A stretch of 64,000 bases of DNA from Escherichia coli O127:H6 str. E2348/69. GTDB taxonomy: Bacteria; Pseudomonadota; Gammaproteobacteria; Enterobacterales; Enterobacteriaceae. Location: the NCBI RefSeq assembly GCF_000026545.1, contig NC_011601.1. One strand, given 5' to 3'. Below the pieces are notes generated by a model. The model saw nothing but the letters and a program-made list of their open reading frames with translations. It did not search any database and was not told the origin of the DNA. The position numbers and the translations under genes were made by a program. Positions 34,535 through 62,183 of the stretch are shown in pieces (position 1 is the first letter of the stretch; each line of letters begins with the position of its first letter).

Positions 34535-34542
34535 CTCAACCA

Positions 34543-37632: not shown

Positions 37633-37844
37633 TTAGGTTGAAAAGACGATGGAATAACCAGGACGGGAAAGCAGTATACCCGAACATGACCTGTGCCACA
37701 AACTTTCATTATCCCTCCTCTTCGCCAGCGCACTATTGAAATCAGGAGTGAGAAAATAGCCCCTTTGGGGTAAATGTTTTTGACGCAAATCAAGCGCTTG
37801 TCATTTAAAAAATGACACAAATCGCGCTTGACCGCGTAATTCCC

Positions 37845-38636: not shown

Positions 38637-38707
38637 TGAATTATCCTGAAAATTGCGGGTCCGTCAGGTGGAAACCTGTGACCAGAATAGAAGTGAGTTA
38701 GTAACAC

Positions 38708-39043
38708 CTACCCAATCAGCACGTTAATTTTGGCTTTAATGAGTTGTAATTCCTCTGGAGCAACTGTTCCTTTCTTCGTTGCTCCTCTTGCCCGCCAGGC
38801 GATACTTTTTACCTGATCAGCTAACGCTACGCCATCACGTTCCTGACCGGATAGAACAACTTCGAACGGATATCCTTTTGATTGCGTTGTACAAGGAACA
38901 CACAGACACATACCTGTTTTGTTGTTGTACATGAACGGACTCAGGACAACAGCCGGACGATGTCCGGCTTGCTCGCTACCTTTTGTCGGGTCAAAATCAA
39001 CCCAAATCAGATCGCCCGTATCGGGTACGTATCGGCTTACCAT
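38708..39043 (-). CDS. mazF: endoribonuclease toxin MazF
   Basis: 111-aa [22 protein letters not shown]..., PemK/MazF fold. Confidence 0.93.
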   Translation of the reverse strand: MVSRYVPDTGDLIWVDFDPTKGSEQAGHRPAVVLSPFMYNNKTGMCLCVPCTTQSKGYPFEVVLSGQERDGVALADQVKSIAWRARGATKKGTVAPEELQLIKAKINVLIG

Positions 39044-39291
39044 TACCAGACTTCCTTATCTTTCGGCTCCCCCCAGTCGATATTCTCGTGGAGGTTTTCC
39101 GGCGTGATGTCGTTGACCAGTTCAGCAAGCGTAAATACGGGCTCTTTACGCACTGGCTCAATAATTAATTTGCCATCCACCAGGTCAATCTTCACTTCAT
39201 CATCAATATTCAGATTGAGCGCCTGCATTAACGTAGCCGGGATCCGCACCGCCGGTGAATTTCCCCAACGCTTTACGCTACTGTGGATCAT
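39043..39291 (-). CDS. mazE: antitoxin MazE
   Basis: 82-aa [21 protein letters not shown]... (AbrB/SpoVT-type); overlaps mazF start. Confidence 0.93.
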
Positions 39292-39316
39292 AACCCTTTC
39301 CTCAAACCGCTATCAT

Positions 39317-39345
39317 ATGTAGATACAGTATATATCAATCTACAT
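39317..39345. promoter_or_regulatory. mazEF promoter operator (alternating palindrome)
   Basis: ATGTAGATACAGTATATATCAATCTACAT, dyad ATGTAGAT/ATCTACAT, 26-54 bp upstream of mazE start. Confidence 0.6.
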
Positions 39346-39368
39346 TGTAGATACGAACAAGTTTCGGC

Positions 39369-41603
39369 CTAACTCCCGTGCAACCGACGCGCGTCGATAA
39401 CATCCGGCACCTGGTTGAGTTTACCCAGCACGCGACCCAGCACTTGCAGGTTGTAAATCTCAATGGTCATGTCGATGGTCGCCAGTTGCTGTTTGGTGTC
39501 GCTACGGCTGGCAACGCCAAGTACGTTCACCTTCTCGTTGGCGAGAATGGTCGTGATATCACGTAACAACCCACTACGATCATTAGCCACCACGCGGACC
39601 ACCAGCGAATATCCGGCGGAGTAGCTCTCACCCCATACCGCGTCAACAATGCGTTCTGGCGCATGGGAGCGCAGTTCCGCCAATTGTTCGCAATCGGCGC
39701 GGTGTACTGAAATACCGCGCCCCTGGGTAATGAAGCCGACAATCTCATCTCCAGGAATCGGCTGGCAGCAGCGCGCGATGTGGTGCATCAGGTTACCAAC
39801 ACCTTCTACCACCACACGACCGTTATCTTTACTGCGGTTTTGCGGCGTATAGCTTTTTTGCTGAAGTTGCTTCAGCGCGGCGGCATCCTGCTCTTCGGCA
39901 CTCGGCTTATTAAATTGCGATTGCAGGAAGTTCACCATCTGATTGAGACGGATATCCCCGCCACCAATTGCCGCCAGCAACTCGTCGACATCATTGAAGT
40001 TGTAACGCGGCAGCAGATGTTTTTCTGCTTCTTTCAGGCTGATCCCCAGATGTTCCAGCTCGTCGTCAAGGATTTGCCGCCCAGCCAGAATGTTTTTGTC
40101 ACGGTCCTGTTTACGGAACCAGGCGTGAATTTTCGAACGCCCACGGCTGGTTGTGACGTAACCGAGGTTTGGGTTTAACCAGTCACGGCTGGGGTTCGGC
40201 TGTTTCTGGGTGATAATTTCAATCTGGTCGCCCATCTGCAGCTGGTAGGTGAACGGCACAATGCGCCCGCCAATTTTTGCCCCGATGCAGCGGTGTCCGA
40301 CATCACTGTGGATGTGGTAAGCGAAGTCCAGCGGTGTTGATCCCGCAGGCAAATCAACGACATCACCTTTCGGCGTAAAGACGTACACCCGGTCGTCAAA
40401 GACCTGGCTACGTACTTCGTCGAGCATTTCGCCGGAATCAGCCATCTCTTCCTGCCACGCAATCAGTTTACGCAGCCAGGCAATCCGGTCTTCATGTCCC
40501 GAACGTGCGCCGCCAGCTGCCGCGCCCTCTTTATATTTCCAGTGTGCAGCAACACCCAACTCTGCATCTTCATGCATCTGTTTGGTGCGGATTTGGATCT
40601 CAACGGTTTTGCCACCCGGCCCCAGAACCACGGTATGAATAGACTGATAACCGTTTGGTTTCGGGTTAGCGACGTAATCGTCAAACTCATCCGGCAGGTG
40701 GCGATAGTGAGTGTGCACTATCCCCAGTGCGGCATAACAATCCTGTAAACGCTCGGCGACAATACGTACCGCACGCACATCAAACAGCTCATCGAAGGCG
40801 AGGTTCTTTTTCTGCATTTTGCGCCAGATGCTGTAGATGTGTTTCGGACGACCATACACTTCAGCTTTAACGCCTTCAGCTTTCATCTCAGCGCGCAGAT
40901 GGCCGACAAACTCTTCGATATAGTGTTCGCGGTCAAGACGGCGTTCATGCAGCAGTTTTGCGATGCGTTTGTATTCGGTCGGGTGCAGATAACGGAAGCA
41001 GTAATCTTCCAGCTCCCATTTCAGTTGCCCAATCCCAAGACGGTTCGCCAACGGCGCGTAGATATTGGTGCACTCTTTTGCCGCCAGTACGCGTTCATCT
41101 TCCGGCGCATCTTTTACTTCGCGCAGGTGAGCAATACGCTCCGCCAGTTTGATGACCACGCAGCGAAAATCATCGACCATCGCCAATAACATCCGGCGAA
41201 CGTTATCGACCTGTTCGGAGGAAACAGAATCGGTATGCGTCGCTTTCAGCTGGCGGATCGCCGCCATATCACGCACGCCGTGAATAAGGTTAACGACCGA
41301 CTTACCGACGCTCTCACGCAGCACATCTTCGCTGACTACGTTGGCATCGGCCAGAGGGAACAGCAGCGCCGCCCGCAGCGTGTCAATGTCCATACTTAAT
41401 GTCGAGAGGATCTCCACCATCTCAACACCACGCCACAATAACAGACTGGCATCCGGATGCCCCTGCGTCTGTTGCAGACAATACGCCCAGGTTTCGGCTA
41501 AGCACTCACACGACTTCTGGCTGGTAATACCCAGACTTGCGATCCATTTTTCCGGATCAAATTCACCAGCCTTATTGATATGTGCACTTCTTACCGCAAC
41601 CAT
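39369..41603 (-). CDS. relA: GTP pyrophosphokinase ((p)ppGpp synthetase I)
   Basis: 744-aa ORF, RelA/SpoT family (HD-like, synthetase, TGS, ACT regions). Confidence 0.96.
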   Translation of the reverse strand: MVAVRSAHINKAGEFDPEKWIASLGITSQKSCECLAETWAYCLQQTQGHPDASLLLWRGVEMVEILSTLSMDIDTLRAALLFPLADANVVSEDVLRESVGKSVVNLIHGVRDMAAIRQLKATHTDSVSSEQVDNVRRMLLAMVDDFRCVVIKLAERIAHLREVKDAPEDERVLAAKECTNIYAPLANRLGIGQLKWELEDYCFRYLHPTEYKRIAKLLHERRLDREHYIEEFVGHLRAEMKAEGVKAEVYGRPKHIYSIWRKMQKKNLAFDELFDVRAVRIVAERLQDCYAALGIVHTHYRHLPDEFDDYVANPKPNGYQSIHTVVLGPGGKTVEIQIRTKQMHEDAELGVAAHWKYKEGAAAGGARSGHEDRIAWLRKLIAWQEEMADSGEMLDEVRSQVFDDRVYVFTPKGDVVDLPAGSTPLDFAYHIHSDVGHRCIGAKIGGRIVPFTYQLQMGDQIEIITQKQPNPSRDWLNPNLGYVTTSRGRSKIHAWFRKQDRDKNILAGRQILDDELEHLGISLKEAEKHLLPRYNFNDVDELLAAIGGGDIRLNQMVNFLQSQFNKPSAEEQDAAALKQLQQKSYTPQNRSKDNGRVVVEGVGNLMHHIARCCQPIPGDEIVGFITQGRGISVHRADCEQLAELRSHAPERIVDAVWGESYSAGYSLVVRVVANDRSGLLRDITTILANEKVNVLGVASRSDTKQQLATIDMTIEIYNLQVLGRVLGKLNQVPDVIDARRLHGS

Positions 41604-41650
41604 CGTCCTCTCCTTTAGGGACCAGACCTGCCGAAATCGGCAAATCGTAA

Positions 41651-42952
41651 CTATTTAACGCGCGAGAAAAGTACCATCGATTCCAGATGTCCCGTGTGTG
41701 GGAACATATCCAGCATCGCCAGTCGCGCAATGGTATATCCTGCTTTTAATAACGCTTCGCTATCCCGAGCCAGCGTTGCAGGGTTACAGGATACATAAAC
41801 TATACGAATAGGTTCCAGTTTTATAATTTGCTGCATAACACCTGCGGCACCTGCTCGCGCCGGGTCCAGCAACACTTTATCGAAGCCGTTTTTCGCCCAC
41901 GGCTGCTTTGTGACATCTTCTTCAAGATTTTCGTGATAAAACGTCACATTCTGTAAGCCATTAAGACGCGCATTCTGCTGGCCTTTTTCCACCAGCGCCG
42001 GAACACCTTCTACACCGACCACACTGGCAGCTTGTGTCGCCAATGGCAGTGTAAAGTTGCCCATACCGCAGAACAGATCCAGTACGCGATCTTCAGGTTG
42101 TACATCCAGCCATTCCAACGCACGCGCTACCATTTTTTGGTTCACACCCGCATTGACCTGAATAAAATCGCGCGGGCTAAAAGTTAAGCGCAACCCGTTT
42201 GAGTCATACCAGGGCATCTCACCAGAGACGGTTTCGAGTATCTCACTATCGGGGGCGAGATACAGATCCAGGCCTTCAGAATGCGAAAAGCGTTCCAGTT
42301 TTTCGCGATCAGCCGAACTTAGCGGTGCGGTATGGCGCAAAATCATCAGCGTGCCGCTGGTTGCCTGTACCAGTTCAACATGACCAAGATGGCGCATAGC
42401 TTGTAAGCTGCCCAGGCATGCCCTGACTTTGGGCAGCAATGCTTCAAGTTGGGGCACTAAAATGGGACATTGTTTAACGTCGACAATGTCACTGGAGCCC
42501 GCTTTGCGAAACCCCATCTGAAGTTGCTGTGTTTTCGGTAAGTAGTTCAGACTTAAACGCGCGCGACGGCGATAGCCCCAGGGAACATCGGCGATCACTT
42601 CAGAGACTTCGTGTTTCATTAATCGGGCGAGTGCCGCACTTTTGCTTCGCTGCTGTAAATCCACGCTGGCGTGTTGTTGCTGACAGCCGCCGCATACGCC
42701 AAAATGAGGACAGCGTGGCGTTTCGCGTTCCGGGCTATCGCTTAACCGGCGCACGACTTTAGCGCGGGCGTATTGTTTTTTATCTTCAGTAACAGTAACT
42801 TCCGCGTTTTCCTGTGGCAATAATCCAGGAATAAATAACGCTTTGCCGTTATGTCGTGCCACGCCCTGACCAAAAGAGTCGAGGTCGTTGACTGAAACAG
42901 TTATGATCTGACGCGTCGTCGTGCGTCGTTTTGCAGAGTAGAATTGCGCCAT
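41651..42952 (-). CDS. rlmD: 23S rRNA (uracil1939-C5)-methyltransferase
   Basis: 433-aa ORF with TRAM domain and 4-Cys cluster ([11 protein letters not shown]), SAM-MTase C-domain. Confidence 0.92.
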
Positions 42953-43008
42953 TGGCGAGACTTTCTCAATTTAACAGTGTGACCTTAATTGTCCCATAAC
43001 GGAACTCC

Positions 43009-45765
43009 ATGACCAACTACAGCCTGCGCGCACGCATGATGATTCTGATCCTGGCACCGACCGTCCTTATTGGTTTATTGCTGAGTATCTTTTTCGTTGT
43101 GCATCGCTATAACGACTTGCAGCGTCAACTGGAAGATGCCGGAGCCAGCATTATTGAGCCGCTTGCAGTTTCTACTGAATATGGCATGAGCCTGCAAAAC
43201 CGCGAATCTATCGGTCAGTTAATAAGCGTACTGCATCGTCGCCATTCCGATATTGTTCGCGCGATTTCGGTTTATGATGAAAATAACCGACTCTTTGTCA
43301 CCTCCAATTTTCATCTTGATCCCTCATCAATGCAGCTCGGCAGCAACGTGCCGTTTCCTCGCCAGCTCACTGTCACCCGTGACGGCGATATTATGATCCT
43401 CCGCACGCCGATTATTTCTGAGAGTTACTCCCCCGACGAATCGCCCAGTAGCGATGCCAAAAATAGTCAAAATATGCTGGGATATATTGCGCTGGAGCTG
43501 GATCTTAAATCGGTTCGCTTGCAGCAATATAAAGAGATCTTTATTTCCAGCGTGATGATGCTGTTTTGTATCGGTATTGCGCTTATTTTTGGCTGGCGCT
43601 TAATGCGCGATGTAACCGGTCCGATTCGCAATATGGTGAATACCGTCGACCGCATCCGTCGCGGGCAACTCGACAGCCGTGTGGAAGGATTTATGCTCGG
43701 CGAGCTGGATATGCTGAAAAACGGTATCAACTCGATGGCAATGTCGCTGGCTGCTTATCACGAAGAGATGCAGCACAATATCGACCAGGCGACGTCCGAT
43801 CTGCGTGAAACGCTGGAGCAGATGGAAATTCAGAACGTTGAGTTGGATCTGGCGAAAAAGCGCGCCCAGGAAGCGGCGCGTATTAAATCCGAGTTTCTTG
43901 CAAATATGTCACACGAGCTGCGTACACCACTGAATGGTGTTATTGGCTTTACCCGCCTGACGCTGAAAACAGAATTAACACCAACGCAGCGCGATCACCT
44001 GAATACGATTGAACGTTCGGCAAATAATTTGCTGGCAATTATTAATGATGTTCTCGACTTCTCGAAACTGGAAGCCGGTAAGCTGATTCTGGAAAGTATT
44101 CCATTCCCACTACGCAGCACGCTGGATGAAGTCGTTACCCTGCTGGCACATTCTTCTCACGATAAAGGGCTGGAACTGACGCTCAATATTAAAAGCGACG
44201 TGCCTGATAACGTTATCGGCGACCCACTACGATTACAGCAAATCATCACTAACCTGGTGGGGAATGCAATTAAATTCACCGAGAATGGCAACATTGATAT
44301 TCTGGTAGAAAAACGTGCGCTGAGTAATACCAAAGTGCAGATTGAAGTGCAGATTCGGGATACCGGCATTGGTATTCCTGAACGCGATCAATCGCGCTTA
44401 TTCCAGGCCTTCCGACAGGCTGATGCCAGTATTTCCCGCCGTCATGGTGGCACCGGGCTGGGGCTGGTGATTACACAAAAACTGGTTAATGAAATGGGCG
44501 GCGATATTTCGTTTCATAGCCAGCCGAATCGCGGTTCAACTTTCTGGTTCCACATTAATCTCGATCTGAATCCGAACATTATTATTGAAGGGCCATCCAC
44601 CCAGTGCCTCGCCGGTAAACGCCTGGCCTATGTCGAACCAAACTCCGCAGCAGCGCAATGCACGCTGGATATTTTAAGTGAAACGCCGCTGGAGGTGGTT
44701 TATAGCCCAACGTTCTCCGCGCTGCCTCCCGCGCATTACGACATGATGTTGTTAGGCATCGCGGTGACCTTCCGCGAGCCGCTAACAATGCAACATGAGC
44801 GATTAGCGAAAGCGGTATCGATGACCGATTTCCTGATGCTGGCACTTCCTTGCCATGCACAAGTCAATGCTGAAAAACTCAAGCAAGATGGTATCGGCGC
44901 GTGTCTGCTGAAACCATTAACACCTACGCGCCTGTTGCCTGCCCTGACGGAATTTTGTCATCACAAACAAAACACGCTTTTGCCTGTAACCGATGAAAGT
45001 AAGCTGGCAATGACAGTCATGGCGGTTGATGACAACCCCGCTAACCTGAAACTTATCGGCGCATTGCTGGAAGATATGGTGCAACATGTGGAACTTTGCG
45101 ATAGCGGGCATCAGGCGGTTGAACGGGCGAAACAGATGCCGTTCGATTTGATCTTAATGGATATTCAAATGCCGGACATGGACGGCATTCGGGCCTGCGA
45201 ACTCATCCACCAGCTCCCCCATCAGCAACAAACGCCGGTTATCGCGGTAACGGCGCATGCAATGGCCGGGCAAAAAGAGAAGCTGCTTGGCGCAGGGATG
45301 AGCGATTATCTGGCGAAACCGATTGAAGAAGAGCGATTGCATAATTTGTTGTTGCGCTACAAGCCTGGCAGCGGTATTTCCTCTCGCGTCGTGACGCCCG
45401 AAGTCAACGAAATTGTGGTGAACCCGAATGCGACCCTCGACTGGCAACTGGCACTACGCCAGGCAGCAGGAAAAACCGATTTAGCGCGCGATATGCTGCA
45501 AATGTTACTCGATTTCCTGCCTGAAGTTCGCAACAAAGTTGAGGAACAGCTGGTTGGAGAAAACCCGGAAGGCCTGGTTGATTTGATTCATAAACTGCAT
45601 GGCAGTTGCGGCTATAGCGGTGTGCCGCGTATGAAGAATATCTGCCAACTGATCGAACAACAGCTACGTAGCGGTACTAAAGAAGAAGATTTAGAGCCGG
45701 AGCTGCTGGAACTGTTGGACGAGATGGATAATGTAGCGCGCGAAGCCAGCAAAATTCTCGGGTAA
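43009..45765 (+). CDS. barA: hybrid sensor histidine kinase BarA
   Basis: 918-aa ORF: TM sensor, HAMP, HisKA (SHELRTPLN), HATPase, receiver (DIQMPDMDG), Hpt. Confidence 0.95.
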
Positions 45766-45837
45766 TGGACGTCTTGTCGAGTAGCAACCGGATTTTTATG
45801 ACGCTGGTTTCAGATTGGTGAAAAGTGCCTGTGTTTA

Positions 45838-45872
45838 TGCCGGATGCGGCGTTAACGCCTTATCCGGCCTGC
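45838..45872. repeat. REP element
   Basis: TGCCGGATGCGGCGTTAACGCCTTATCCGGCCTGC in the barA-gudD intergenic region. Confidence 0.7.
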
Positions 45873-45995
45873 AAAACCAATTAAGTTCAATGAATTAAAA
45901 AATGATGTAACCCTGATACGTAGCGCAACAGGCAATTTTGCGTTTGGCATCAGTCTCAAACCGGCTCCAGATAGAGCCGGTTTTGGTTTTCTGTC

Positions 45996-47336
45996 TTAAC
46001 GCACCATGCACGGACGCTTGTTATCGAACGTCCAGCCGGGGATCAGGTACTGCATTCCCATCGCATCGTCACGCGCGCCAAGCCCGTGTTTCTGATACAG
46101 CTCGTGCGCTTTCATCACTTGATCCATATCGATTTCTACACCCAGCCCCGGTTTTTCTGGCACCTGAACCAGACCGCCTTTGATCTCTAACGGTTCTTTG
46201 GTCAGACGCTGATTGCCTTCCTGCCAGATCCAGTGCGTATCAATAGCAGTAATTTTACCCGGTGCAGCAGCGGCTACATGGGTAAACATCGCCAGGGAAA
46301 TATCGAAGTGGTTGTTAGAGTGTGAACCCCAGGTCAGGCCAAATTCATGGCACATTTGCGCCACACGTACCGAACCTTGCATCGTCCAGAAATGCGGATC
46401 CGCCAGCGGGATATCAACGGATTGTAACGAGAGCGTATGGCCCATCTGCCGCCAGTCGGTGGCGATCATATTGGTTGCGGTCGGCAGGCCAGTCGCGCGA
46501 CGGAACTCTGCCATCACTTCACGCCCGGAGAAACCTTGCTCCGCACCACACGGATCTTCTGCATAAGCCAGCGAACCTTTCAGGTATTTACCAATTTTAA
46601 TCGCTTCGTTCAGCGACCAGGCACCGTTAGGATCGAGGGTAATACGCGCCTGTGGGAAGCGTTGCGCCAGTGCCACAATAGATTCTGCTTCTTCTTCCCC
46701 GGCCAGTACACCACCCTTCAGTTTGAAATCGTTGAAGCCATATTTTTCATATGCCGCTTCCGCCAGGCGCACCACCGCATCCGGCGTCATCGCTTCTTCG
46801 TGACGCAGGCGATACCAGTCACATTTATCATCCGGCTGGCTTTGATACGGCAGCGGTGTGGCTTTGCGATTACCGACGAAGAACAGATAACCGAGCATTT
46901 CGACTTCGCTACGCTGTTGACCATCGCCCAGCAGCGATGCCACGTTAACCCCCAGATGCTGCCCCAGCAGATCCAGCATTGCCGCTTCTATCCCGGTAAC
47001 TACATGAATAGTGGTCCGCAAATCAAATGTCTGCAAACCGCGCCCGCCGGCATCACGATCGGCAAATGTATTACGCACCAGCGTCAGAACGTTTTTGTAT
47101 TCACCCAGCGTTTTACCCACCACCAGCGGAATCGCATCTTCCAGCGTTTTACGGATTTTCTCGCCGCCGGGAATTTCCCCTACCCCAGTGTGACCAGAAT
47201 TATCTTTGATAATCACAATATTACGCGTGAAGAACGGTGCGTGTGCACCACTCAGATTCATCAGCATACTGTCATGGCCCGCCACCGGGATGACCTGCAT
47301 TTCAGTAACAACAGGCGTCGTAAATTGAGAACTCAT
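45996..47336 (-). CDS. gudD: glucarate dehydratase
   Basis: ORF 45996..47360; enolase-superfamily; start placed at [10 protein letters not shown] (446 aa); last gene of gudPXD. Confidence 0.88.
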
Positions 47337-47356
47337 ATTTATGTCCTTTTTCAAAA

Positions 47357-48697
47357 TCAATGACGGCCGAAAACGGGACGTTTACGGTCAAAGGTCCAGC
47401 CGGGGATCAGGTACTGCATCGGGCCCGCGTCGTTACGCGCACCGCCAGGCAGACGTTTATAGGCCTCATGCGCCTTTTGTACCTGCTCCCAGTCCAGTTC
47501 CACGCCCAGACCGGGCGCATCAGGAACGGCAATTTTTCCGTTTTTAATCTCCAGCGGATTTTGGGTCAGGCGACAATCGCCCTCCTGCCAAATCCAGTGG
47601 GTATCGATAGCGGTAGGATTACCCGGTGCCGCCGCACCCACATGGGTAAACATCGCCAGAGAGATATCAAAGTGGTTATTGGAATGGCAGCCCCAGGTCA
47701 GCCCCCAGTCGTCGCAAAGCTGCGCTACGCGGACTGCACCGGAAAGCGTCCAGAAGTGCGGATCGGCAAGTGGAATATCTACCGCATTGAGCATCACCGC
47801 ATGACCCATTTCGCGCCAGTTGGTGGCGATCATGTTGGTCGCGACGGGCAAGCCGGTCGCCCGTCGAAACTCCGCCATCACTTCACGACCGGAGAAACCC
47901 TGCTCAGCGCCGCACGGGTCTTCCGCATAGGTAAGAACATCATTCAGCCCTTTGCACAGAGAAATGGCTTCATCAAGCAGCCAGGCACCATTGGGATCAA
48001 CGGTAATCCGCGCATCAGGGAAGCGTTTCTTCAATGCACGAACAGTGTCGATTTCTTGCTCGCCAGGTAACACGCCACCCTTAAGTTTGAAATCTTTAAA
48101 GCCATAGCGATCCTGTGAGGCTTCCGCCAGACGCACAACGGCTTCGCTGTTCATCGCTTTCTGATGCCGCAACTGATACCACTCATGGTTGCCCGGCGTA
48201 TTTTCCAGATAAGGAAGATCGGTTTTGGTCCGATCACCGATATAAAACAGATAACCGAGAACGGTAATAGCATCACGTTGCTTGCCTGGCCCTAACAGTT
48301 CGCAGACCGGAACATTCAGCGCCTGACCTAACAGGTCAAGCAAGGCGGCTTCCAGCGCCGCCACGGCATTAACGCGCAATTCAAAAGTCCAGGCACCTTT
48401 GCCGAAGGCATCAAAATCGGCTGCCTGATTACCTTTATGCACCTGCTGAACCACTTTATTCAGGCGCGCAACTTCCTGGCCCAGCACCATCGGAATAGCC
48501 TCGACCAGTGTTTGATAAATCACCTCTCCGCCCGGCGCTTCACCAATGCCGGTATGCCCGGCATTATCGGTGAGTACCACAATATTGCGGGTGAAATATG
48601 CGTTATGTGCACCACCAATATTAAGCAACATGCTGTCATGTCCGGCGACCGGAATGACTTTCATATCAGTAATAACAGGACTGGATTGTGTCGTCAT
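47357..48697 (-). CDS. gudX: glucarate dehydratase-related protein (enolase superfamily paralog)
   Basis: 446-aa ORF, paralogous to gudD (long identical runs such as [24 protein letters not shown]). Confidence 0.88.
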
Positions 48698-48698
48698 C

Positions 48699-50051
48699 TT
48701 ATTGCCCCGCGACAGGTTTCAGCTCAATACGCTTGATATCGCCCACCAGCACCAGGTAGCTGAGTACCGCGATTAAGGCATGAACACCAACATAAATCAG
48801 CGCCCCATTAAAGGAGCCAGTCGTGCCAACGATATAACCAATTGCGATTGGCGTGACGATGCCAGAAATGTTACCAAACATGTTAAACAGGCCACCGGAA
48901 AGACCGCTGATCTCTTTTGGCGCAGTATCAGCCATTACAGCCCAACCCAGCGCACCGATCCCCTTACCGAAGAAGGCCAGCGCCATAAAGCCGATGATCA
49001 TCCACTCAACGTTGACGTAGTTGCAGAACACCATCACCATCGACAACAACATGCCCATCACGATCGGTGTTTTACGCGCAATGTTCAGTGAACCCGTGCG
49101 ACGCATCAGCCAGTCGGAAATAATCCCACCCAGCACACCGCCGATAAAACCGCAAACCGCCGGAACGGAAGCCACAAAGCCCGCTTTCAGAATCGACATC
49201 CCGCGCGCCTGCACCAGATAAACCGGGAACCAGGTAATGAAAAAGTAAGTCAGGGCGTTGATACAGTACTGACCGATATAAACGCCGATCATCATCCGTG
49301 ACCCGAGCAGCTGTTTGATCTGCCCCCACTTCACGCTAAACGGCACTTTAACTTTGGTGTTTTGCTGATCCATATTGATCAGCGCGCCACCCGCGGCGAT
49401 GTACTCCAGCTCTTTCTGATTTACGACCGGATGTTGATTTGGCTCGTGGATGACTTTCAACCAGATAAAGCTGATGACAATGCCCAGACCGCCCATAAAG
49501 AAAAAGACGTGTGACCAGCCCACTTCATGCGTCAGCCAGCCCATAATCGGCGCGAAGATAACCGTTGCGAAGTATTGAGCGGAGTTAAAAATCGACACCG
49601 CCGTTCCCCTTTCCTGCGCCGGAAACCAGGCCGCAACAATGCGACTGTTGCCGGGGAAAGAGGGCGCTTCAGCAAGCCCGACCAGGAAGCGCAGCGTAAA
49701 CAGGGCAACGATAATGCCGAATCCACTAAAGATATCGACGAAGCCTTGCAGCAAGGTAAACATCGACCAGATAAAGATCGACCAGAAGTAGACGCGTTTT
49801 GAACCAAAACGATCCAGCAACCAGCCACCAGGGATCTGCCCGATAACATACGCCCATGAGAAGGCAGAGAACACATAGCCCATTCCCACGGGATCAAGGC
49901 CGATATCTTTGGCCATTTCCGAACCGGCAATAGAAAGCGTAGCGCGGTCGCCGTAGTTGAAGGATGTGACGATAAACAACATCACCACTATCCAGTAACG
50001 AGCATTCGTGCGTTTTTCCACACTGCTCGCAGCCTGACTTAAAGAACTCAT
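48699..50051 (-). CDS. gudP: MFS glucarate/galactarate transporter
   Basis: 450-aa multi-TM ORF, anion:cation symporter-like; first gene of gud operon. Confidence 0.88.
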
Positions 50052-50484
50052 TGTTGCACTCCTGAAAATTCGCGTTAGCCACGCTCACTCTGGACTGCGA
50101 CATCGCCAGGAAATCAGAGGTGACGTAGGGTGTTTTTGCCGTTTTTATAGGTCGTTCGCCGAATACGGCGCGTGTTTATATCTGGCAATAGCAGTATAAA
50201 AAGCGCGCCATAGCGGCTCACCGTGCAACAACACAACATTAATGCGTTCAATGAGGCCCGATTTTGGCATTAGCCCTGGACGGTGGAATCCACTTCACGG
50301 AAATGAAAACAAGAACAAGAAAGGAAGGATTAAAACGAAGAAATAAAGAAGAGTATGAAATGGATCGCTTGACTCCAGGCAAACGCCAGTAAAAATCCGC
50401 GCTATGAAGCAGTTTTTACTGGCATTTGCCTGAAAAGATTCGATTCAGCACCGCTAAAACGGCATTTACCGCTCGCTGAACATA

Positions 50485-50934
50485 TCAGGACAACATCGTG
50501 CCCCAATGTTCAACCCACGGATTTGATTCCGTTTCCGGTTCCGGGTTCTCACTGGCGTCAATCAACAGCATTTCTCCCACCCGCTGAGCGCTCTGTTCCT
50601 GCAACAAGGCATCGAACTGTTTGCCGCCATTGCAGAAATTCACATAACTACTGTCGCCGAGCGCAATCACGCCATAACGCAGATTCGGCTGGAAGCCCAG
50701 ACTATCTTTGATTCCCTGAAAGAGTGGCACAATGCTATCAGGAAGGTCGCCCTGCCCGGTCGTGGACGTAACCACCAGAACATACTTATCCTGATAGGGC
50801 AGCCAGTCGCTTAATTCAGGCTCTTCAAATACCGTTGCTTTGTGGCCCTGCGCGGTCAGAATCGCTTCCGCTTCTTCGGCCACTAACAGTGAATTCCCGT
50901 ACATGGTGCCGACAAAAATACCAATTTCCGCCAT
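50485..50934 (-). CDS. yqcA: flavodoxin-like protein
   Basis: 149-aa [18 protein letters not shown]..., flavodoxin fold. Confidence 0.85.
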
Positions 50935-50951
50935 ACCGTTTTCTCCCTGGA

Positions 50952-51734
50952 TTAGGAACTTATCTCTCCATCCTGACCCGATGGCGCACTGAACTCAACC
51001 CTTTCATTTTCAGGAAGCAGACCGCGCCAGCCAAATTGTGATAACGCCTGCATCCAGGTGTCGTCCAGGCCCGCGTGAATAGTCAGCGGCTCGCCAGTAA
51101 AAGGATGCGTCAATGACAACTGACTGGCATGCAGCATTAACCGCTGAAGGCCAAAATGCTCAGCACCGCTGCGATTCTGGCGTAAATCACCATGTTTGCT
51201 GTCGCCAATAATCGGGTGCCGCAAATGGGCAAGATGGCGACGAAGCTGGTGCTTGCGTCCAGTTTTCGGCTCCAGTTCCACCAGGCCGTAGCGCGTGGTC
51301 GGGTAACGTCCGGTCGCTACCGGCATTTCTACGGTCGCCAGACCGCGATAATGCGTCACTGCTGGCTGCGGGCCTTTATCTTCGCGGGCAAATTTATCAG
51401 CGATTTTGTCCAGTTCTTCCACCAGTGGATAATCCAGCACCGCTTCTTCCATCAACCAGCCACGCACAATCGCATGGTAACGTTTCTGGATTTGGTGCTG
51501 TTCAAACTGTTGTGCCAGCAGCCGTCCGGCTTCGCTGGATAATCCCATCAACAACACACCAGAAGTTGGTCGGTCCAGACGATGAGCAGTAAAAACATGC
51601 TGGCCTATCTGGTCACGCACGGTTTGCATGACCACTACTTTCTCGTCGCGATCCAGCCAGCTGCGGTGAACCAACCAGCCGGAGGGTTTATTTACCGCAA
51701 CCAGCCATTCATCCTGATAGAGTATTTCCAGCAT
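50952..51734 (-). CDS. truC: tRNA pseudouridine(65) synthase TruC
   Basis: 260-aa ORF, RluA-family pseudouridine synthase ([12 protein letters not shown]). Confidence 0.88.
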
Positions 51735-52063
51735 TAGCTCGCATCATCCGCAAAAAGAGCATCCAGTTTTTCCAGCTCTGCCAGAATAAGCGCGCGTTGC
51801 GGGTGGTCCGTCGCCAGCGCCATTTCATAATAAGGCGCAACAGCAAAAGCGCCCGGTAACGGCTGGTTGTTATCTAACAAATCGTGCATTCGCGGGATCA
51901 GCACCCACTGCAACCACTCCAGTGGTTCCATGGTGTCCATAAAGAACGGTTGAGTACTGTTAAATTGATGCGGCAGGGGTTCATCGTTTCGCCAGTGCTG
52001 ATGTTCACGCAGTAACGCTTCAAGCGCCTGCAACTGGAGACGAACGCGGTCATGAGTGGTCAT
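51734..52063 (-). CDS. yqcC: DUF446 protein YqcC
   Basis: 109-aa ORF overlapping truC start; conserved position. Confidence 0.78.
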   Translation of the reverse strand: MTTHDRVRLQLQALEALLREHQHWRNDEPLPHQFNSTQPFFMDTMEPLEWLQWVLIPRMHDLLDNNQPLPGAFAVAPYYEMALATDHPQRALILAELEKLDALFADDAS

Positions 52064-52105
52064 AAAGCAACCTCAATAAGAAAAACTGCCGCGAAGAATA
52101 GCAGG

Positions 52106-52474
52106 AATAAAAAAAGGGAGCACTGTATTCACAGTGCTCCCGGTTCGTTTCGCAGCATTCCGGCTACTTTTATTGCTCCCTGCTCATCCTTGACAACTTT
52201 TCCTCTGGCCTTACGGCCAATCGTTCATCCTGAACTATTGCTTCCTGCTCACACCACCCCGATGTGATACTTCATCCTGAAGTGTTCCTGGCCTTCCTGA
52301 CCCACCGAATCATCCTGACCGGTTCTCATTCTCCATCCTGGAGGTGTCCTTTAACGCGTCCTGCGTCATCCTCTTCGCTTCATCCAGAAGCCTTTCCCTG
52401 AAACACCATCCTGGTGTGTCCTTCAGAAGTGTCATCATCCTGATGTTCACTTCGTTGTCTGACTCCCTGTCGAC
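52106..52474 (-). ncRNA. csrB: CsrB small regulatory RNA (CsrA-sequestering)
   Basis: ~369 nt; transcript begins GUCGACAGGGAG...; about 18 GGA-containing repeats (seen as CATCCTG/TCCTG on the given strand); ends in hairpin GGGAGCACUGUGAAUACAGUGCUCCC + U7 (A-run 52108..52114). Confidence 0.9.
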
Positions 52475-52647
52475 GAAGATAGAATCGTCTTTTTCTCGAA
52501 GTCTTACAAGGCGCTTACAGACAATGCCTTAAGGAAAATTTCATATGAAAGTTAAGAATTAACAAGCAACATGTTGTTTTTAAATGAGAATAACGATTCT
52601 TATCTTTTTAAGTATTCGCTTATTTCCTGGCGATCTCCTACAGAGTC

Positions 52648-52665
52648 TGTAAGAGATCTCTCACA
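52648..52665. promoter_or_regulatory. UvrY/SirA-type 18-bp palindrome upstream of csrB
   Basis: TGTAAGAGATCTCTCACA, near-perfect inverted repeat ~175 bp upstream of the csrB 5' end. Confidence 0.7.
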
Positions 52666-52684
52666 ACCAGATGGGGTATTTGGA

Positions 52685-53230
52685 TTACAGAAGAGGCTTA
52701 AGTTGATTAAGGAATTCCGCAAGATTTGAGGCTAAATGCGTCCGTTTACGTGTTCCCAGCGTCTCTTTGCACACTTCACCGGAGAGATTACACACCGAGA
52801 TGACCTCTAACTCTTCTTCCAGCGTCGCGATAAATAGCGTGGGCGGCAGTTTTAGCCTTTTCTGAGTCACCAGATGACCAATCAGATTTTCCTGCACCCG
52901 ACGGAAGTCGTCTTCACTCCAGGTTTGCAGCAATGTCAGTTTGATATCGCCAAACTGCGCGTGCATATCCCCGGCAAACTGAGTCGTATAAAAGGTATGA
53001 ATCGTGGGTTGTATCACAATATCAAAAGCGCGTTCAACCGCGTTTACATTTTGTTCCCCGGTAAACGGCTGGGGTTGCCAGTATACGGCATCTTCGGTAG
53101 TTGAAATAATGCACGGTGAAGGAACGCCGTACAGTTCCTCACTTAACGGCCAGCTTTTATGCTCTTCATGCCACGCATCGCAGTAGCGTGCAGTAAAATC
53201 TTTCAGGGCTTGTGCGGTCAAATCGTCCAC
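52685..53230 (-). CDS. syd: SecY-interacting protein Syd
   Basis: 181-aa [25 protein letters not shown]... Confidence 0.85.
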
Positions 53231-53297
53231 TAATTTCTCTCTTCACTTAAACCAGATACACTTGTCGTTTAGTTTATCTGGTTTATGACGGTGAAAC

Positions 53298-54146
53298 ATG
53301 TCTTCTTATGCAAACCATCAGGCACTTGCGGGCCTGACACTTGGAAAATCAACCGATTATCGGGATACCTATGACGCCAGCCTACTGCAAGGCGTACCAC
53401 GCAGCCTGAATCGCGACCCGCTGGGTCTGAAAGCGGATAACCTGCCTTTTCACGGTACGGATATCTGGACGCTGTATGAACTTTCCTGGCTGAATGCGAA
53501 AGGTTTGCCGCAGGTCGCTGTCGGTCATGTTGAACTTGATTACACCAGCGTAAATCTGATTGAGTCGAAGAGTTTTAAGCTCTATCTCAACAGTTTTAAC
53601 CAGACGCGTTTTAATAACTGGGATGAGGTGCGCCAGACGCTGGAGCGCGACTTAAGCACTTGCGCCCAGGGTAAGGTTAGCGTGGCGTTATATCGTCTTG
53701 ATGAACTGGAAGGCCAGCCGATAGGTCATTTCAATGGCACCTGCATTGATGACCAGGATATCACTATCGATAACGATGAATTCACTACTGACTATCTGGA
53801 GAATGCCACCAGTGGTGAAAAAGTAGTGGAAGAGACGCTTGTCAGCCACCTGCTGAAATCAAACTGCCTGATCACCCATCAACCAGATTGGGGTTCGATC
53901 CAAATTCAGTATCGTGGACGCCAAATTGACAGAGAAAAACTGCTGCGTTACCTGGTCTCTTTCCGTCATCACAACGAGTTCCACGAACAGTGCGTGGAAC
54001 GCATCTTTAATGACCTGTTACGCTTCTGCCAGCCAGAAAAATTGAGCGTTTACGCACGTTATACCCGTCGTGGCGGTCTGGACATTAACCCGTGGCGCAG
54101 TAATAACGATTTTGTCCCATCGACCACAAGACTGGTTCGGCAATAA
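53298..54146 (+). CDS. queF: NADPH-dependent 7-cyano-7-deazaguanine reductase
   Basis: 282-aa two-domain QueF-type ORF. Confidence 0.9.
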
Positions 54147-54257
54147 ATTTTTTCTCAATTTTGCGTGCTGGATTCACGCAGAAGGTTGTGAAAGGTCAGC
54201 AGGCAGGGCTATTGTAATCAAAGGGAATGACGATATTCGTCCCATAAGGAGTTTTTC

Positions 54258-55622
54258 TTGATTACACATATTAGCCCGCTTGGCTCCATGGATATGTTGT
54301 CGCAGCTGGAAGTGGATATGCTTAAACGCACCGCCAGCAGCGACCTCTATCAACTGTTTCGCAACTGTTCACTTGCCGTACTGAACTCCGGTAGTTTGAC
54401 CGATAACAGCAAAGAATTGCTGTCTCGTTTTGAAAATTTCGATATTAACGTCCTGCGCCGTGAACGCGGCGTAAAGCTGGAACTGATAAATCCCCCGGAA
54501 GAGGCTTTTGTCGATGGGCGAATTATTCGCGCTTTGCAGGCCAACTTGTTCGCGGTTCTGCGTGACATTCTCTTCGTTTATGGGCAAATTCATAACACCG
54601 TTCGTTTTCCCAACCTGAATCTCGACAACTCCGTCCACATCACTAACCTGGTCTTTTCCATCTTGCGTAACGCTCGCGCGCTGCATGTCGGTGAAGCGCC
54701 AAATATGGTGGTCTGCTGGGGCGGTCACTCAATTAACGAAAACGAGTATTTGTATGCCCGTCGCGTCGGGAACCAGCTGGGCCTGCGTGAGCTGAATATC
54801 TGCACCGGCTGTGGTCCGGGAGCGATGGAAGCGCCGATGAAAGGTGCTGCGGTCGGACACGCGCAGCAGCGTTACAAAGACAGTCGCTTTATTGGTATGA
54901 CAGAGCCGTCGATTATCGCCGCTGAACCGCCTAACCCGCTGGTCAACGAATTGATCATCATGCCAGATATCGAAAAACGTCTGGAAGCGTTTGTCCGTAT
55001 CGCTCACGGTATCATTATCTTCCCTGGCGGTGTGGGTACAGCAGAAGAGTTGCTGTATTTGCTGGGAATTTTAATGAACCCGGCCAACAAAGATCAGGTT
55101 TTACCATTGATCCTCACCGGCCCGAAAGAGAGCGCCGACTACTTCCGCGTACTGGACGAGTTTGTCGTGCATACGCTGGGTGAAAACGCGCGCCGCCATT
55201 ACCGCATCATCATTGATGACGCCGCTGAAGTCGCTCGTCAGATGAAAAAATCGATGCCGCTGGTGAAAGAAAATCGCCGCGACACTGGTGACGCTTACAG
55301 CTTTAACTGGTCAATGCGCATTGCGCCAGATTTGCAAATGCCGTTTGAGCCGTCTCACGAGAATATGGCTAATCTGAAGCTTTACCCGGATCAACCCGTT
55401 GAAGTGCTGGCTGCCGACCTGCGCCGTGCGTTCTCCGGTATTGTGGCGGGTAATGTAAAAGAAGTCGGTATTCGCGCCATTGAAGAGTTTGGTCCTTACA
55501 AAATCAACGGCGATAAAGAAATTATGCGTCGTATGGACGACCTGCTACAGGGTTTTGTTGCCCAGCATCGTATGAAGTTGCCAGGCTCAGCCTACATCCC
55601 TTGCTACGAAATCTGCACGTAA
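54258..55622 (+). CDS. ppnN: nucleotide 5'-monophosphate nucleosidase (LOG-family)
   Basis: 454-aa ORF with LOG/Rossmann-like core. Confidence 0.85.
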
Positions 55623-55630
55623 GCTCCCCT

Positions 55631-55667
55631 CCCCCGGTGACGTTTGTTGCCGGGTTTTCTCGTTTTT
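55631..55667 (+). terminator. putative intrinsic terminator after ppnN
   Basis: CCCGG...CCGGG hairpin followed by TTTTCTCGTTTTT. Confidence 0.4.
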
Positions 55668-56178
55668 GGTCACTTACTCATCAACTCATTTCATTTGTTA
55701 TATGAATGTTTCTTACCATCCTCACGCGATAAATATCACCACAGTTAATATGTCATACAATTTATGTTGAAACGCAAACGTTTCCCTATTTTCATAAACC
55801 ACATTTTATCGCCATAAAAAAGAAATTATCGCCATGATTAACTAAAAGTATTGATTTTTTCAGTTCAACCTACATATATTGCGCGCCCCGGAAGAAGTCA
55901 GATGTCGTTTAATGGGCAAATATTGCCCTTAAATTCTCTTTTACTTTTGATTTACAGAGTAAAGCGTTGGGATTATCTATCTTCCAAGTAGATTATTGTA
56001 TTTGGGATCAAGATCACTGATAGATACATAACTTGTGTGTATCTTTCCGCCCTCAAATTATTACGGTGGAAAATGATTAAGCCATCGCCGATAGACAGAT
56101 TTCATTTTTACGGTCAGGCACCTTCCCGGGCTGAACTGGCTAAAAGCTGAATTATTTGCATTCCTCCAGGAGAAATAG

Positions 56179-57468
56179 ATGGAAACGACTCAAACCAGCA
56201 CGATTGCGTCGAAAGACTCTCGTAGTGCCTGGCGCAAGACAGACACCATGTGGATGCTGGGCCTTTACGGCACGGCAATCGGCGCGGGCGTGCTGTTCCT
56301 GCCAATCAACGCTGGTGTTGGCGGTATGATCCCGCTGATCATCATGGCTATCCTTGCGTTCCCGATGACGTTTTTTGCTCACCGCGGCCTGACTCGCTTC
56401 GTACTGTCTGGTAAAAACCCGGGCGAAGACATCACCGAGGTTGTAGAAGAACACTTTGGTATTGGCGCAGGTAAACTGATTACCCTGCTCTACTTCTTCG
56501 CTATCTACCCGATCCTGCTGGTTTATAGCGTGGCAATCACCAATACAGTTGAAAGCTTCATGTCTCACCAGCTGGGTATGACGCCACCGCCGCGTGCGAT
56601 TCTGTCGCTGATCCTGATCGTGGGTATGATGACCATCGTTCGCTTCGGTGAGCAAATGATCGTTAAGGCGATGAGTATTCTGGTATTCCCGTTTGTTGGC
56701 GTACTGATGCTGCTGGCTCTGTACTTGATCCCGCAGTGGAACGGCGCAGCACTGGAAACGCTGTCTCTGGACACTGCATCTGCAACCGGAAACGGTCTGT
56801 GGATGACCCTGTGGCTGGCAATTCCGGTAATGGTGTTCTCGTTCAACCACTCTCCGATCATCTCTTCTTTCGCCGTTGCGAAGCGTGAAGAGTACGGCGA
56901 TATGGCAGAACAGAAATGCTCTAAGATCCTGGCATTCGCACACATCATGATGGTGCTGACCGTAATGTTCTTCGTCTTCAGCTGCGTACTGAGCCTGACT
57001 CCGGCAGACCTGGCTGCGGCTAAAGAGCAGAACATCTCGATTCTGTCTTACCTGGCTAACCACTTTAACGCGCCGATTATCGCGTGGATGGCTCCGATTA
57101 TCGCGATTATCGCTATCACCAAATCCTTCCTCGGCCACTACCTGGGCGCACGTGAAGGCTTCAACGGTATGGTGATTAAATCTCTGCGTGGTAAAGGTAA
57201 GTCTATCGAAATCAACAAGCTGAACCGTATCACTGCGCTGTTCATGCTGGTAACGACTTGGATTGTTGCCACCCTGAACCCGAGCATCCTGGGTATGATT
57301 GAAACCCTGGGCGGCCCAATCATCGCGATGATCCTGTTCCTGATGCCGATGTACGCAATTCAGAAAGTACCGGCAATGCGTAAGTACAGCGGTCACATCA
57401 GCAACGTATTCGTTGTCGTGATGGGTCTGATTGCAATCTCCGCAATCTTCTACTCTCTGTTCAGCTAA
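56179..57468 (+). CDS. sdaC: serine:H+ symporter
   Basis: 429-aa multi-[25 protein letters not shown]..., HAAAP family. Confidence 0.95.
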
Positions 57469-57525
57469 GTCCTTTCGCGCCGCTTTCGGGCGGCGCTTCC
57501 TCCGTTTTAACGCGATGTATTTCCT

Positions 57526-59759
<2,234 letters not shown>

Positions 59760-59765
59760 CGGCGT

Positions 59766-59795
59766 GCCGGATACGGCGCAAACGTCGCATCCGGC
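59766..59795. repeat. REP element
   Basis: GCCGGATACGGCGCAAACGTCGCATCCGGC between convergent xni and fucO ends. Confidence 0.65.
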
Positions 59796-59813
59796 ATTAT
59801 CACATCAGCGCAT

Positions 59814-60962
59814 TTACCAGGCGGTATGGTAAAGCTCTACAATATCCTCAAGCGTTGCTTCACGCGGGTTGCCACCGGTACAAACATCATCCAGTGCCGC
59901 CTGCGCCAGTGTCGGAATATCTTCCTTACGTACACCAACATCACGTAAATGTGGCGGAATACCGACATCACGGTTGAGAGCAAACACCGCTTCAACAGCG
60001 GCATTACGCGCCTCTTCCAGGCTCATACCTTCCACTTTCACGCCCATAACGCGTGCGATATCGCGGTACTTCTCACCGGTAAAGTCAGCGTTATAACGCA
60101 TAACATGCGGTAACAGGATGGCGTTCGCAACACCGTGTGGCGTGTTGTAAAACGCGCCCAGTGGATGCGCCATACCATGCACCAACCCTAACCCAACATT
60201 CGAGAATCCCATACCCGCAACATACTGCCCGAGCGCCATTTCTTCTCCGGCATCCTTATCACCAGCAACCGATCCTCGCAGCGCCCCAGCAATGATTTCA
60301 ATCGCTTTAATGTGCAGCGCATCGGTTAGCGCCCACGCGCCACGGGTAATATACCCCTCAATAGCATGAGTGAGCGCATCGACACCCGTCGCGGCTTTCA
60401 GCGCTGGAGGCATACCATCCATCATGTCAGCGTCAATAAACGCCACCTGCGGGATATCATGCGGATCAACGCAAACAAACTTGCGCCGTTTTTCTTCGTC
60501 AGTGATCACGTAGTTAATGGTCACTTCTGCCGCAGTACCTGCTGTGGTGGGGATTGCCAGAATCGGTACACTGGGTTTATTGGTCGGGGAAAGCCCTTCC
60601 AGGCTACGCACATCGGCAAACTCCGGGTTGTTGCTGATAATGCCAATCGCTTTACAAGTATCCTGTGGAGAACCGCCACCAATAGCGATCAGGTAATCCG
60701 CGCCGCTATTCTGGAATACACCGAGCCCTTCTTTGACGACAGTAATTGTTGGGTTCGGCACTACGCCGTCGTAAATCGCCCATGCCAGCCCTGCAGCATC
60801 CATCTTATCGGTCACTTTTGCCACCACGCCGCATTGCACCAGCGTTTTATCGGTGACGATCAGCGCCTTCTGATAACCACGGCGTTTCACCTCATCGGTT
60901 AAAGCTCCAACAGCCCCCCGACCAAACCATGCCGTTTCGTTCAGAATCATTCTGTTAGCCAT
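59814..60962 (-). CDS. fucO: L-1,2-propanediol oxidoreductase (lactaldehyde reductase)
   Basis: Iron-type alcohol dehydrogenase; ORF track gives MMANRMI (to 60965), start placed at second Met. Confidence 0.95.
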   Translation of the reverse strand: MANRMILNETAWFGRGAVGALTDEVKRRGYQKALIVTDKTLVQCGVVAKVTDKMDAAGLAWAIYDGVVPNPTITVVKEGLGVFQNSGADYLIAIGGGSPQDTCKAIGIISNNPEFADVRSLEGLSPTNKPSVPILAIPTTAGTAAEVTINYVITDEEKRRKFVCVDPHDIPQVAFIDADMMDGMPPALKAATGVDALTHAIEGYITRGAWALTDALHIKAIEIIAGALRGSVAGDKDAGEEMALGQYVAGMGFSNVGLGLVHGMAHPLGAFYNTPHGVANAILLPHVMRYNADFTGEKYRDIARVMGVKVEGMSLEEARNAAVEAVFALNRDVGIPPHLRDVGVRKEDIPTLAQAALDDVCTGGNPREATLEDIVELYHTAW

Positions 60963-60989
60963 CATCCTTCTCCTTGTTGCTTTACGAAA

Positions 60990-61637
60990 TTACTCTTCAA
61001 TCCGTAACCCGTAGGTTTTGAATTTCTCCAGCACTACGGCAATCTCTTCATCGCTCAGCACTGGCACCGGGTCCGTAATCGCCAGGGTCGTCAGGTAAAG
61101 TTGCGCCAGCACTTCAACTTCATGCGCCAGCCATAACGCTTTCTCCAGATTCACCTCACAAGCGATAAGCCCATGATGTTGTAACAAAGTTGCCTTACGA
61201 TTTTTGAGAGCCAGCGCAACATGTTCAGAAAGTTCGCGTGTTCCAAAGGTCGCATAAGGCGCGCAAGGAATAGAATTACCGCCAGCCGCCGCAATCATGT
61301 AGTGAATCGCGGGGATCGGTCGGTTAAGAATGGAAACTGCCGTACAATGAACGGCATGATTGTGAACAACCGCGTTGGCATCCGGTCTGCTTTGATAGGC
61401 CGCCATATGGAAACGCCACTCGCTTGAGGGGAGCTTTCCTTCCTCATGTTTGCCGTTGCCATCAATAAAGACAATATGCGACTCCGTCAGTTTTTCATAT
61501 GGAATGCCTGTAGGCGTAATCAGCATCCCATCCTGATAACGTACACTGACGTTACCCGCTGTCCCCTGGTTCAGTCCCAGGCGGGTCATTTCCAGGCAAG
61601 TGTCAATAATCTGACGAGCAAGTTTATTTCGTTCCAT
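60990..61637 (-). CDS. fucA: L-fuculose-phosphate aldolase
   Basis: 215-aa class II aldolase ORF MERNKLARQIIDTC... Confidence 0.95.
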   Translation of the reverse strand: MERNKLARQIIDTCLEMTRLGLNQGTAGNVSVRYQDGMLITPTGIPYEKLTESHIVFIDGNGKHEEGKLPSSEWRFHMAAYQSRPDANAVVHNHAVHCTAVSILNRPIPAIHYMIAAAGGNSIPCAPYATFGTRELSEHVALALKNRKATLLQHHGLIACEVNLEKALWLAHEVEVLAQLYLTTLAITDPVPVLSDEEIAVVLEKFKTYGLRIEE

Positions 61638-62183
61638 TAGCTACCTCTCTCTGATTCAAAACAGGGCAATAATGTTGTTCCTTTCACACTATTGAATTAG
61701 CCGTTTAATTACCCACCATCTTCTTCCTGATTAACCAGAAAGAAATTCACAAGCTTATATTTTGTGACCTGGTTCAACTAATCACAGTAAATAACTGCAA
61801 GTTCTCTTTTTATAACCCTATTAAAAATGACCGCTCTTAAAAATATTTATCAAAACGGTCATTTTTCCATTCCCCCTCGCCAGAAATGCCCGTTTTCGGC
61901 ACAAACAATTAATACGGTCATCGGGTTTGTGTTTTTTATGATTTATTTTCTGAAACGGGCATGAAATTTCGATTATTAAAGTGATGGTAGTCACATAAAG
62001 TCACCTCCCAACTAATAAGTGTGACCGCCGTCATATTACAGAGCGTTTTTTATTTGAAAATGAATCCATGAGTTCATTTCTGACAGGCAAATATTCACTG
62101 ATATGAAGCCCGAACTCGCTGGTTTTGCACTTTTGAAAACATAACCGATTACGTGCTTAAGCTTCTGAACCTAAGAGGATGCT

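Follow-up and report, generated by a model that had tools for sequence, protein, structure and literature searches.

The interval examined within the yqcC-syd gap of Escherichia coli O127:H6 strain E2348/69 (EPEC; positions 52106..52665 of the 64,000-nucleotide stretch of DNA that we analyzed, hereafter the window) is almost certainly the csrB gene of this strain together with its native control region. When the whole window was scanned with Rfam 15 at the gathering threshold, two matches were returned, one of which was CsrB (RF00018) at 52106..52465 on the minus strand, with a score of 382 bits and an E value of 4e-111. The match covers model positions 1-356 of 356 and is not truncated, its score compares with a curated gathering score of 71 bits, and it is the single match to the CsrB clan in the window. 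The original prediction had read a csrB RNA of about 369 nt into the yqcC-syd gap and had named a covariance-model search as the way to check it; that search succeeded decisively, and the position and length agree with an alignment to E. coli K-12 MG1655, in which csrB (b4408) is an annotated and characterized 369-nt ncRNA between yqcC and syd. The two gaps are collinear over 621 alignment columns with zero indels, and transferring the b4408 ends to E2348/69 places the 5’ end of the gene at GTCGACAGGGAGUC..., so that the RNA begins GUCGACAGGGAGUC. Over its full length the RNA is identical to MG1655 csrB at 363 of 369 positions (98%), the six substitutions (K-12 to E2348/69) being C52A, G189A, C262U, C303U, U313C and G340A.

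The predicted structure of the RNA is also that expected of the family. Its minimum free energy of -117.7 kcal/mol (z = -4.4) was better than that of all 100 dinucleotide shuffles, and an alignment of this sequence with eleven other Enterobacterales orthologs (12 genera in all) yielded a consensus made up of short hairpins in which 24 of the 59 consensus pairs are maintained through two-sided changes. The gene is core to the species, as an 801-nt query around csrB matched 5425 of 5426 complete E. coli genomes. The RefSeq features were transferred to the window by way of NZ_CP059840.2 (in reverse complement; zero mismatches over window positions 1..61800), and the E2348/69 RefSeq (PGAP) record carries no feature in the yqcC-syd gap, the interval where MG1655 annotates csrB. 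We also considered, and rejected, a plasmid-borne csrB: the ‘plasmid’ match and the four PLSDB matches (NZ_CP134663.1, NZ_CP141089.1, NZ_OL790696.1 and NZ_LN868944.1) are records of 0.7-4.9 Mb, that is, chromosomes or chromosome-sized pieces that were misfiled, and the ‘plasmid’ records matching csrB provide no evidence of a mobile copy.

CsrB acts as a decoy through its GGA motifs, and a literal count gives 22 of them in the E2348/69 RNA (15 as AGGA and 9 as CAGGA[U/C/A]G), so the figure of about 18 proposed originally was too low. Counted identically, K-12 csrB also has 22, which is the published number (PMC5027483), and the positions of the motifs match between the two strains with the exception of site 14, which is shifted by 1 nt and lies nearer to CAGGA than its K-12 counterpart. 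In the minimum free energy fold most motifs occupy the loops of short hairpins or single-stranded linkers: 19 of the 22 are fully unpaired, 13 of those in hairpin loops, and one GGA falls in the terminator stem. For 19 motifs the unpaired probability averages 0.73 or more, versus 0.44 across the whole RNA. The enrichment was judged by local density, the only meaningful test here: the minus strand of the window has a mean of 5.0 GGA per 369 nt (sd 2.4), and the largest count elsewhere in the window is 13. When the RNA itself is shuffled by dinucleotides, its 64% purine content already gives 15 GGA on average, while the 15 AGGA compare with 5.0 +/- 2.0 (maximum 11) in 1000 such shuffles. The total for the whole window (1615 found, 1694 expected) is uninformative.

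The 3’ end of the gene carries the strong terminator that had been anticipated. Its stem-loop, GGGAGCACUGU-GAAU-ACAGUGCUCCC, comprises 11 pairs (7 of them GC) closed by a 4-nt loop; the stem is followed by TTTTTTTATT, and the tail reads UUUUUUUAUU, with a U7 run. The stem is conserved in other genera with compensatory changes, and a G.U pair of the K-12 stem is an A-U pair in E2348/69. In K-12, the ‘necessary cleavage site’ for RNase E lies near the terminator of CsrB and is protected by CsrA bound at GGA 20 and 21 (PMC5027483). The stretch that runs in E2348/69 from site 21 (52159..52161) to the terminator shows no difference from K-12, the nearest one being U313C at 52162, the base immediately 5’ of that GGA, and it probably corresponds in function to the K-12 cleavage region, a role that we take from the same study.

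Table 1 Features of the csrB locus of E2348/69 and its neighbors (positions in the window; GGA sites numbered from the 5’ end of the RNA).
Feature	Position	Strand	Details
barA, sensor kinase, intact	43009..45765	+	RefSeq annotation of identical sequence
yqcC (DUF446), downstream neighbor	51734..52063	-	PF04287, E 5.6e-34; RefSeq
csrB small RNA	52106..52474	-	369 nt; ends transferred from MG1655 b4408
Intrinsic terminator	52106..52141	-	Stem-loop 52116..52141; tail 52106..52115
Span of the 22 GGA motifs, candidate CsrA-binding sites	52140..52466	-	Literal count
GGA sites 1-11	52466, 52440, 52421, 52411, 52397, 52385, 52371, 52361, 52349, 52338, 52334	-	First base of each motif
GGA sites 12-22	52315, 52297, 52288, 52277, 52245, 52230, 52203, 52189, 52179, 52161, 52140	-	First base of each motif
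GGA site 21 and unstructured CGAAACGAACC up to the terminator	52142..52161	-	Putative counterpart of the K-12 RNase E region
Spurious 46-aa ORF	52310..52450	-	Sense strand, wholly inside csrB
Spurious 62-aa ORF, GTG start	52344..52532	+	Antisense to csrB
Predicted -10 hexamer GATTCT (-12..-7)	52481..52486	-	Weak match to TATAAT
Predicted -35 hexamer TTGTAA (-35..-30)	52504..52509	-	17-bp spacer to -10
Putative IHF site region (-105..-90)	52564..52579	.	Overlapping IHF-like cores
Accessory half-site TGTAGGAGA	52634..52642	-	5 bp downstream of the inverted repeat; as in K-12
18-nt UvrY-P inverted repeat, putative; TGTGAGAGATCTCTTACA on the csrB strand	52648..52665	-	K-12 footprint match
syd (SecY-interacting protein), upstream neighbor	52685..53230	-	PF07348, E 3.4e-73; RefSeq

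Upstream of the gene lies an 18-bp palindrome, TGTAAGAGATCTCTCACA, imperfect in that it is self-complementary at 16 of its 18 positions, and unique in the window, where 0.02 matches would be expected at up to 3 mismatches. With the csrB start taken from the MG1655 annotation for promoter numbering, the center of this inverted repeat is at -183/-182 (alignment columns 28/29, the csrB start being column 211). Zere et al. 2015 mapped UvrY-P in K-12 by DNase I footprinting and ChIP-exo to a site whose sequence and position (-183/-182) they reported (PMC4682653), and the E2348/69 repeat is that site letter for letter at the same distance, in agreement with the earlier assignment of a UvrY-type palindrome. 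By homology, then, it is expected to be the element that UvrY-P binds in E2348/69. The accessory half-site described at csrB in the same study (PMC4682653) is likewise present, and its TGTRRGA.AT pattern is conserved across genera.

A simple consensus scan of 51900..52900 returned no sigma-70 promoter, the -35 and -10 matches being too weak for it, as would be expected of a promoter that depends on an activator; we placed the promoter instead by homology and cross-genus conservation, which point to the hexamers listed in Table 1. Among 15 enterobacterial upstream regions, the GATTCTAT block of the -10 region is invariant as ATTCTAT and TTGTAAGAC of the -35 region is conserved across genera, the other conserved blocks being the inverted repeat, the half-site and the GTCGACAGG start. 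The putative -35 overlaps a half-site-like TGTAAG (a further TGTAAG is found at 52514..52519) and falls inside the promoter-proximal region, -56..+25, in which UvrY crosslinking has been reported (PMC4682653). E2348/69 and K-12 do not differ in the inverted repeat, the half-site, the -35, the -10 or the start.

The segment that separates the half-site from the promoter is 73-83% AT, and IHF is required for optimal UvrY binding at csrB according to Zere et al. (PMC4682653). In K-12 two perfect WATCAANNNNTTR cores, one on each strand, overlap at -105..-90, and in E2348/69 each of them has one mismatch (AAACAACATGTTG and AAGCAACATGTTG): five positions differ from K-12 upstream of the gene, and at three of these the T of ATCAA is removed in the two overlapping IHF-like cores. 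This is a common lineage allele, since the E2348/69 version of the 81-nt upstream stretch was found at 99% identity or more in 913 of 5272 complete E. coli genomes. Loss of the core T might conceivably weaken the IHF-assisted looping of UvrY-P and give these strains a different CsrB set-point or IHF dependence, and hence a different CsrA activity, a proposal that we consider unlikely. The lineage-specific change in the IHF-like cores is the only loose end at this locus.

The immediate neighbors of csrB are those of the K-12 gene, and 19 nt separate the stop codon of syd from the inverted repeat. The original prediction had also drawn attention to barA, the gene for the sensor kinase that acts upstream of UvrY, some 7 kb away in the same window; it is indeed there and intact, and the distance was fairly judged, with 6.3 kb between the barA stop codon and the 3’ end of csrB, occupied by gudDXP, yqcA, truC and yqcC. 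No uvrY gene is among the annotated genes of the window (RefSeq annotation of E2348/69). The order syd-csrB-yqcC-truC is conserved in more than 60 loci, and syd, yqcC, truC and queF flank the 18-mer in 57-68 loci. Few 18-mer loci have barA inside the flanks that were fetched, E. albertii being among them; in this species (locus L045, 2516..7354) 573 bp separate the end of barA from truC and neither gudPXD nor yqcA intervenes, so that barA lies ~1.7 kb from csrB, versus 6.3 kb in the E2348/69 window.

The two open reading frames of the gap (Table 1) are by-products of the biased composition of csrB and not genes. The 62-aa ORF overlaps csrB from +1 to +131 and then continues for 58 nt into the promoter (-1..-58), through the -10 and the -35. 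It had been dismissed beforehand as a false protein call inside the RNA; false it is, with no Pfam match and with stops in relatives, whereas ‘inside’ does not hold for a frame that is antisense and reaches 58 nt into the promoter. It is annotated in neither E2348/69 nor MG1655, and its exact product, in the E2348/69 as well as in the K-12 version, is absent from a collection of 15 billion proteins, so that, as a rule, it is not called as a gene. The frame is interrupted in E. albertii (at residue 51), at several positions in Citrobacter, Klebsiella, Kluyvera and Pluralibacter, and in others, and the DNA is conserved nonetheless. That it is open in E. coli is explained by the pyrimidine-rich antisense strand of csrB, which has few stop codons (one frame contains 2 in 369 nt, versus 5.8 expected). 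The 46-aa ORF, also without a Pfam match, is entered in NCBI and UniRef as a ‘hypothetical protein’ (for example ECP_2774 of E. coli 536, and in Shigella boydii) and occurs in 62 contigs.

These database entries, together with the fact that both frames are open in K-12 and E2348/69 alike, are what would be expected if one of the ORFs encoded a real small protein and the RNA were in part an mRNA. Yet neither belongs to a Pfam family or is annotated in the curated MG1655 record or in the PGAP record of E2348/69; the 62-aa frame does not survive in E. albertii and other genera despite nucleotide conservation, and it straddles the csrB transcription start and promoter; and long ORFs antisense to csrB arise from composition alone, the sense strand being 64% purine. 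A coding function is therefore extremely improbable. The palindrome deserves the same scrutiny, because it follows directly on syd, on the same strand and so close to its stop codon, and because as RNA it could form a hairpin of ~7 bp (judged by reading the sequence), as a hairpin at the end of the syd transcript would; it might equally be the site of some other factor. Against both possibilities, there is no U-tract after it and the terminator scan did not report it, it coincides exactly with the DNase I footprint of UvrY-P (PMC4682653), and the same 18-mer adjoins GGA-dense RNAs in Vibrio, Photobacterium and Shewanella loci in which no syd was found. We give these alternatives almost no weight and retain the assignment of the palindrome as a UvrY-P site.

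It could also be argued that the E2348/69 copy, with six differences from K-12 in the RNA and five in the promoter region, is decaying or functionally altered. Three of the five upstream differences do lie inside the IHF-like cores, and U313C is placed just 5’ of GGA 21, a site needed in K-12 for the protection from RNase E by CsrA (PMC5027483). All 22 GGA motifs are nevertheless kept, with site 14 if anything closer to the CAGGA form; the terminator stem has gained a Watson-Crick pair relative to K-12; the nucleotide that precedes GGA 21 differs freely from genus to genus; the promoter elements and the inverted repeat with its half-site are unchanged; and an upstream allele that 913 complete genomes carry at 99% identity or more is a common variant of a lineage. 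Decay or altered function is thus very unlikely, and a conventional csrB gene remains the reading that accounts for the region.

csrB, the GGA decoy mechanism and the UvrY inverted repeat are already known and have been characterized in E. coli for years, and the mechanism that we envisage for E2348/69 is drawn from the literature on K-12 and Salmonella (PMC4682653, PMC5027483, PMC7652899), from which expression, the 5’ end, UvrY binding and CsrA binding in this strain are extrapolated by homology. According to this published work, BarA would sense short-chain carboxylates and phosphorylate UvrY, and UvrY-P would bind the inverted repeat upstream of csrB. Bending of the intervening DNA by IHF would then bring UvrY-P to the weak promoter and activate csrB transcription. 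The GGA sites of the resulting CsrB would bind many CsrA dimers and titrate CsrA away from its mRNA targets. Decay of the RNA would begin with an RNase E cut just upstream of the terminator, a cut that CsrA at GGA sites 20 and 21 is expected to block and that CsrD would permit by releasing the block.

For annotation, the locus illustrates how a track built on ORFs alone misses a core global regulator, as does the PGAP record of E2348/69, which lacks csrB. Running a covariance-model pass before ORF calling in such gaps prevents both the missed csrB and the spurious ‘hypothetical protein’.

Several other features of the window were noted along the way. A chromosomal hok/sok locus at 8658..10053 is split by an IS remnant: an Rfam ‘sok’ match (hok leader region) is located at 9904..10053 on the minus strand, an intact 50-aa Hok CDS (PF01848) at 8658..8810 on the same strand, and a truncated transposase with rve/HTH domains, which PGAP calls a pseudogene lacking its C-terminus, at 8872..9906 on the plus strand. 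With ~1.09 kb between the leader and the coding sequence, the toxin gene has probably lost its connection to its native promoter and to regulation by the antisense RNA. The iap-cysH interval that holds this locus (7496..10909) has nothing but the hok/IS remnant and carries no annotated cas gene, and the type I-E CRISPR repeat of K-12 is matched nowhere in the whole window when up to 3 mismatches are allowed (0 matches). Between queE and ygcE (~26134..32612) there is a sucrose-utilization gene cluster encoding a LacI-family regulator, a sucrose-6-phosphate hydrolase, a sucrose PTS IIBC component, a carbohydrate porin and a kinase, which is presumably absent at this position in K-12. Directly downstream of relA, at ~39000..39600, the E2348/69 annotation has the type II toxin-antitoxin system mazEF, an ordinary and known arrangement.

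To place the E2348/69 gene among its relatives, we followed the 18-mer into other genomes. It occurs exactly in at least 120 stretches from the genomes of other species, which belong to Enterobacterales, Vibrionaceae, Shewanella and a few other gammaproteobacteria. Among the 121 copies listed, 113 are flanked on one side by DNA with 15 or more GGA per 500 nt, the other side having a median of ~5; of the remaining copies listed, three are cut by contig ends and five have no GGA-dense side. When 15 loci were scanned, 13 showed a CsrB Rfam match beside the 18-mer, and in all 11 enterobacterial loci this match starts 164-185 bp from it (180-185 bp in eight). The five copies that lack a GGA-dense region within 600 nt on both sides (L030, L031, L074, L076 and L085) come from Shewanella atlantica, in which it is a second copy, from Hahellaceae and Kangiellaceae MAGs, from a Pseudomonadales MAG and from a Vibrio sp.; they could be further targets of the UvrY/GacA-type regulator or chance occurrences.

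The closest known system is csrB of K-12 MG1655, which shares with that of E2348/69 the syd-csrB-yqcC locus, the length of 369 nt, the 22 GGA and an inverted repeat at -183/-182, and from which it is set apart by 6 point differences in the RNA and 5 upstream, and by being annotated, unlike the RefSeq copy of E2348/69. CsrB/RsmB of Citrobacter, Klebsiella, Enterobacter, Serratia, Pantoea, Erwinia, Dickeya and Edwardsiella match RF00018 with 164-380 bits. These Enterobacterales orthologs have the same 18-mer, the syd/yqcC synteny where flanks were recovered, and hairpins kept by compensation; their sequences diverge between the conserved blocks, and several internal hairpins are deleted from the csrB of Erwinia and Pantoea (309 nt). 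At a greater distance, Vibrionaceae and Shewanella resemble E2348/69 in having the exact 18-mer beside GGA-dense regions, with as many as three such loci in a genome, and two of the three loci of Vibrio breoganii reach the RF00018 gathering score. They differ in their weak Rfam scores (77-87 bits) or in giving no match (L007 and L029), and in their spacing. The RNA is found on the opposite side of the near-symmetrical box in 29 of the 113 loci listed, including all three of Vibrio breoganii. Finally, CsrC of E. coli is, like CsrB, a UvrY-activated decoy that offers multiple GGA motifs to CsrA (PMC4682653, PMC7652899), but it is encoded at another locus, outside the window, and has a weaker inverted repeat and no requirement for IHF (PMC4682653).
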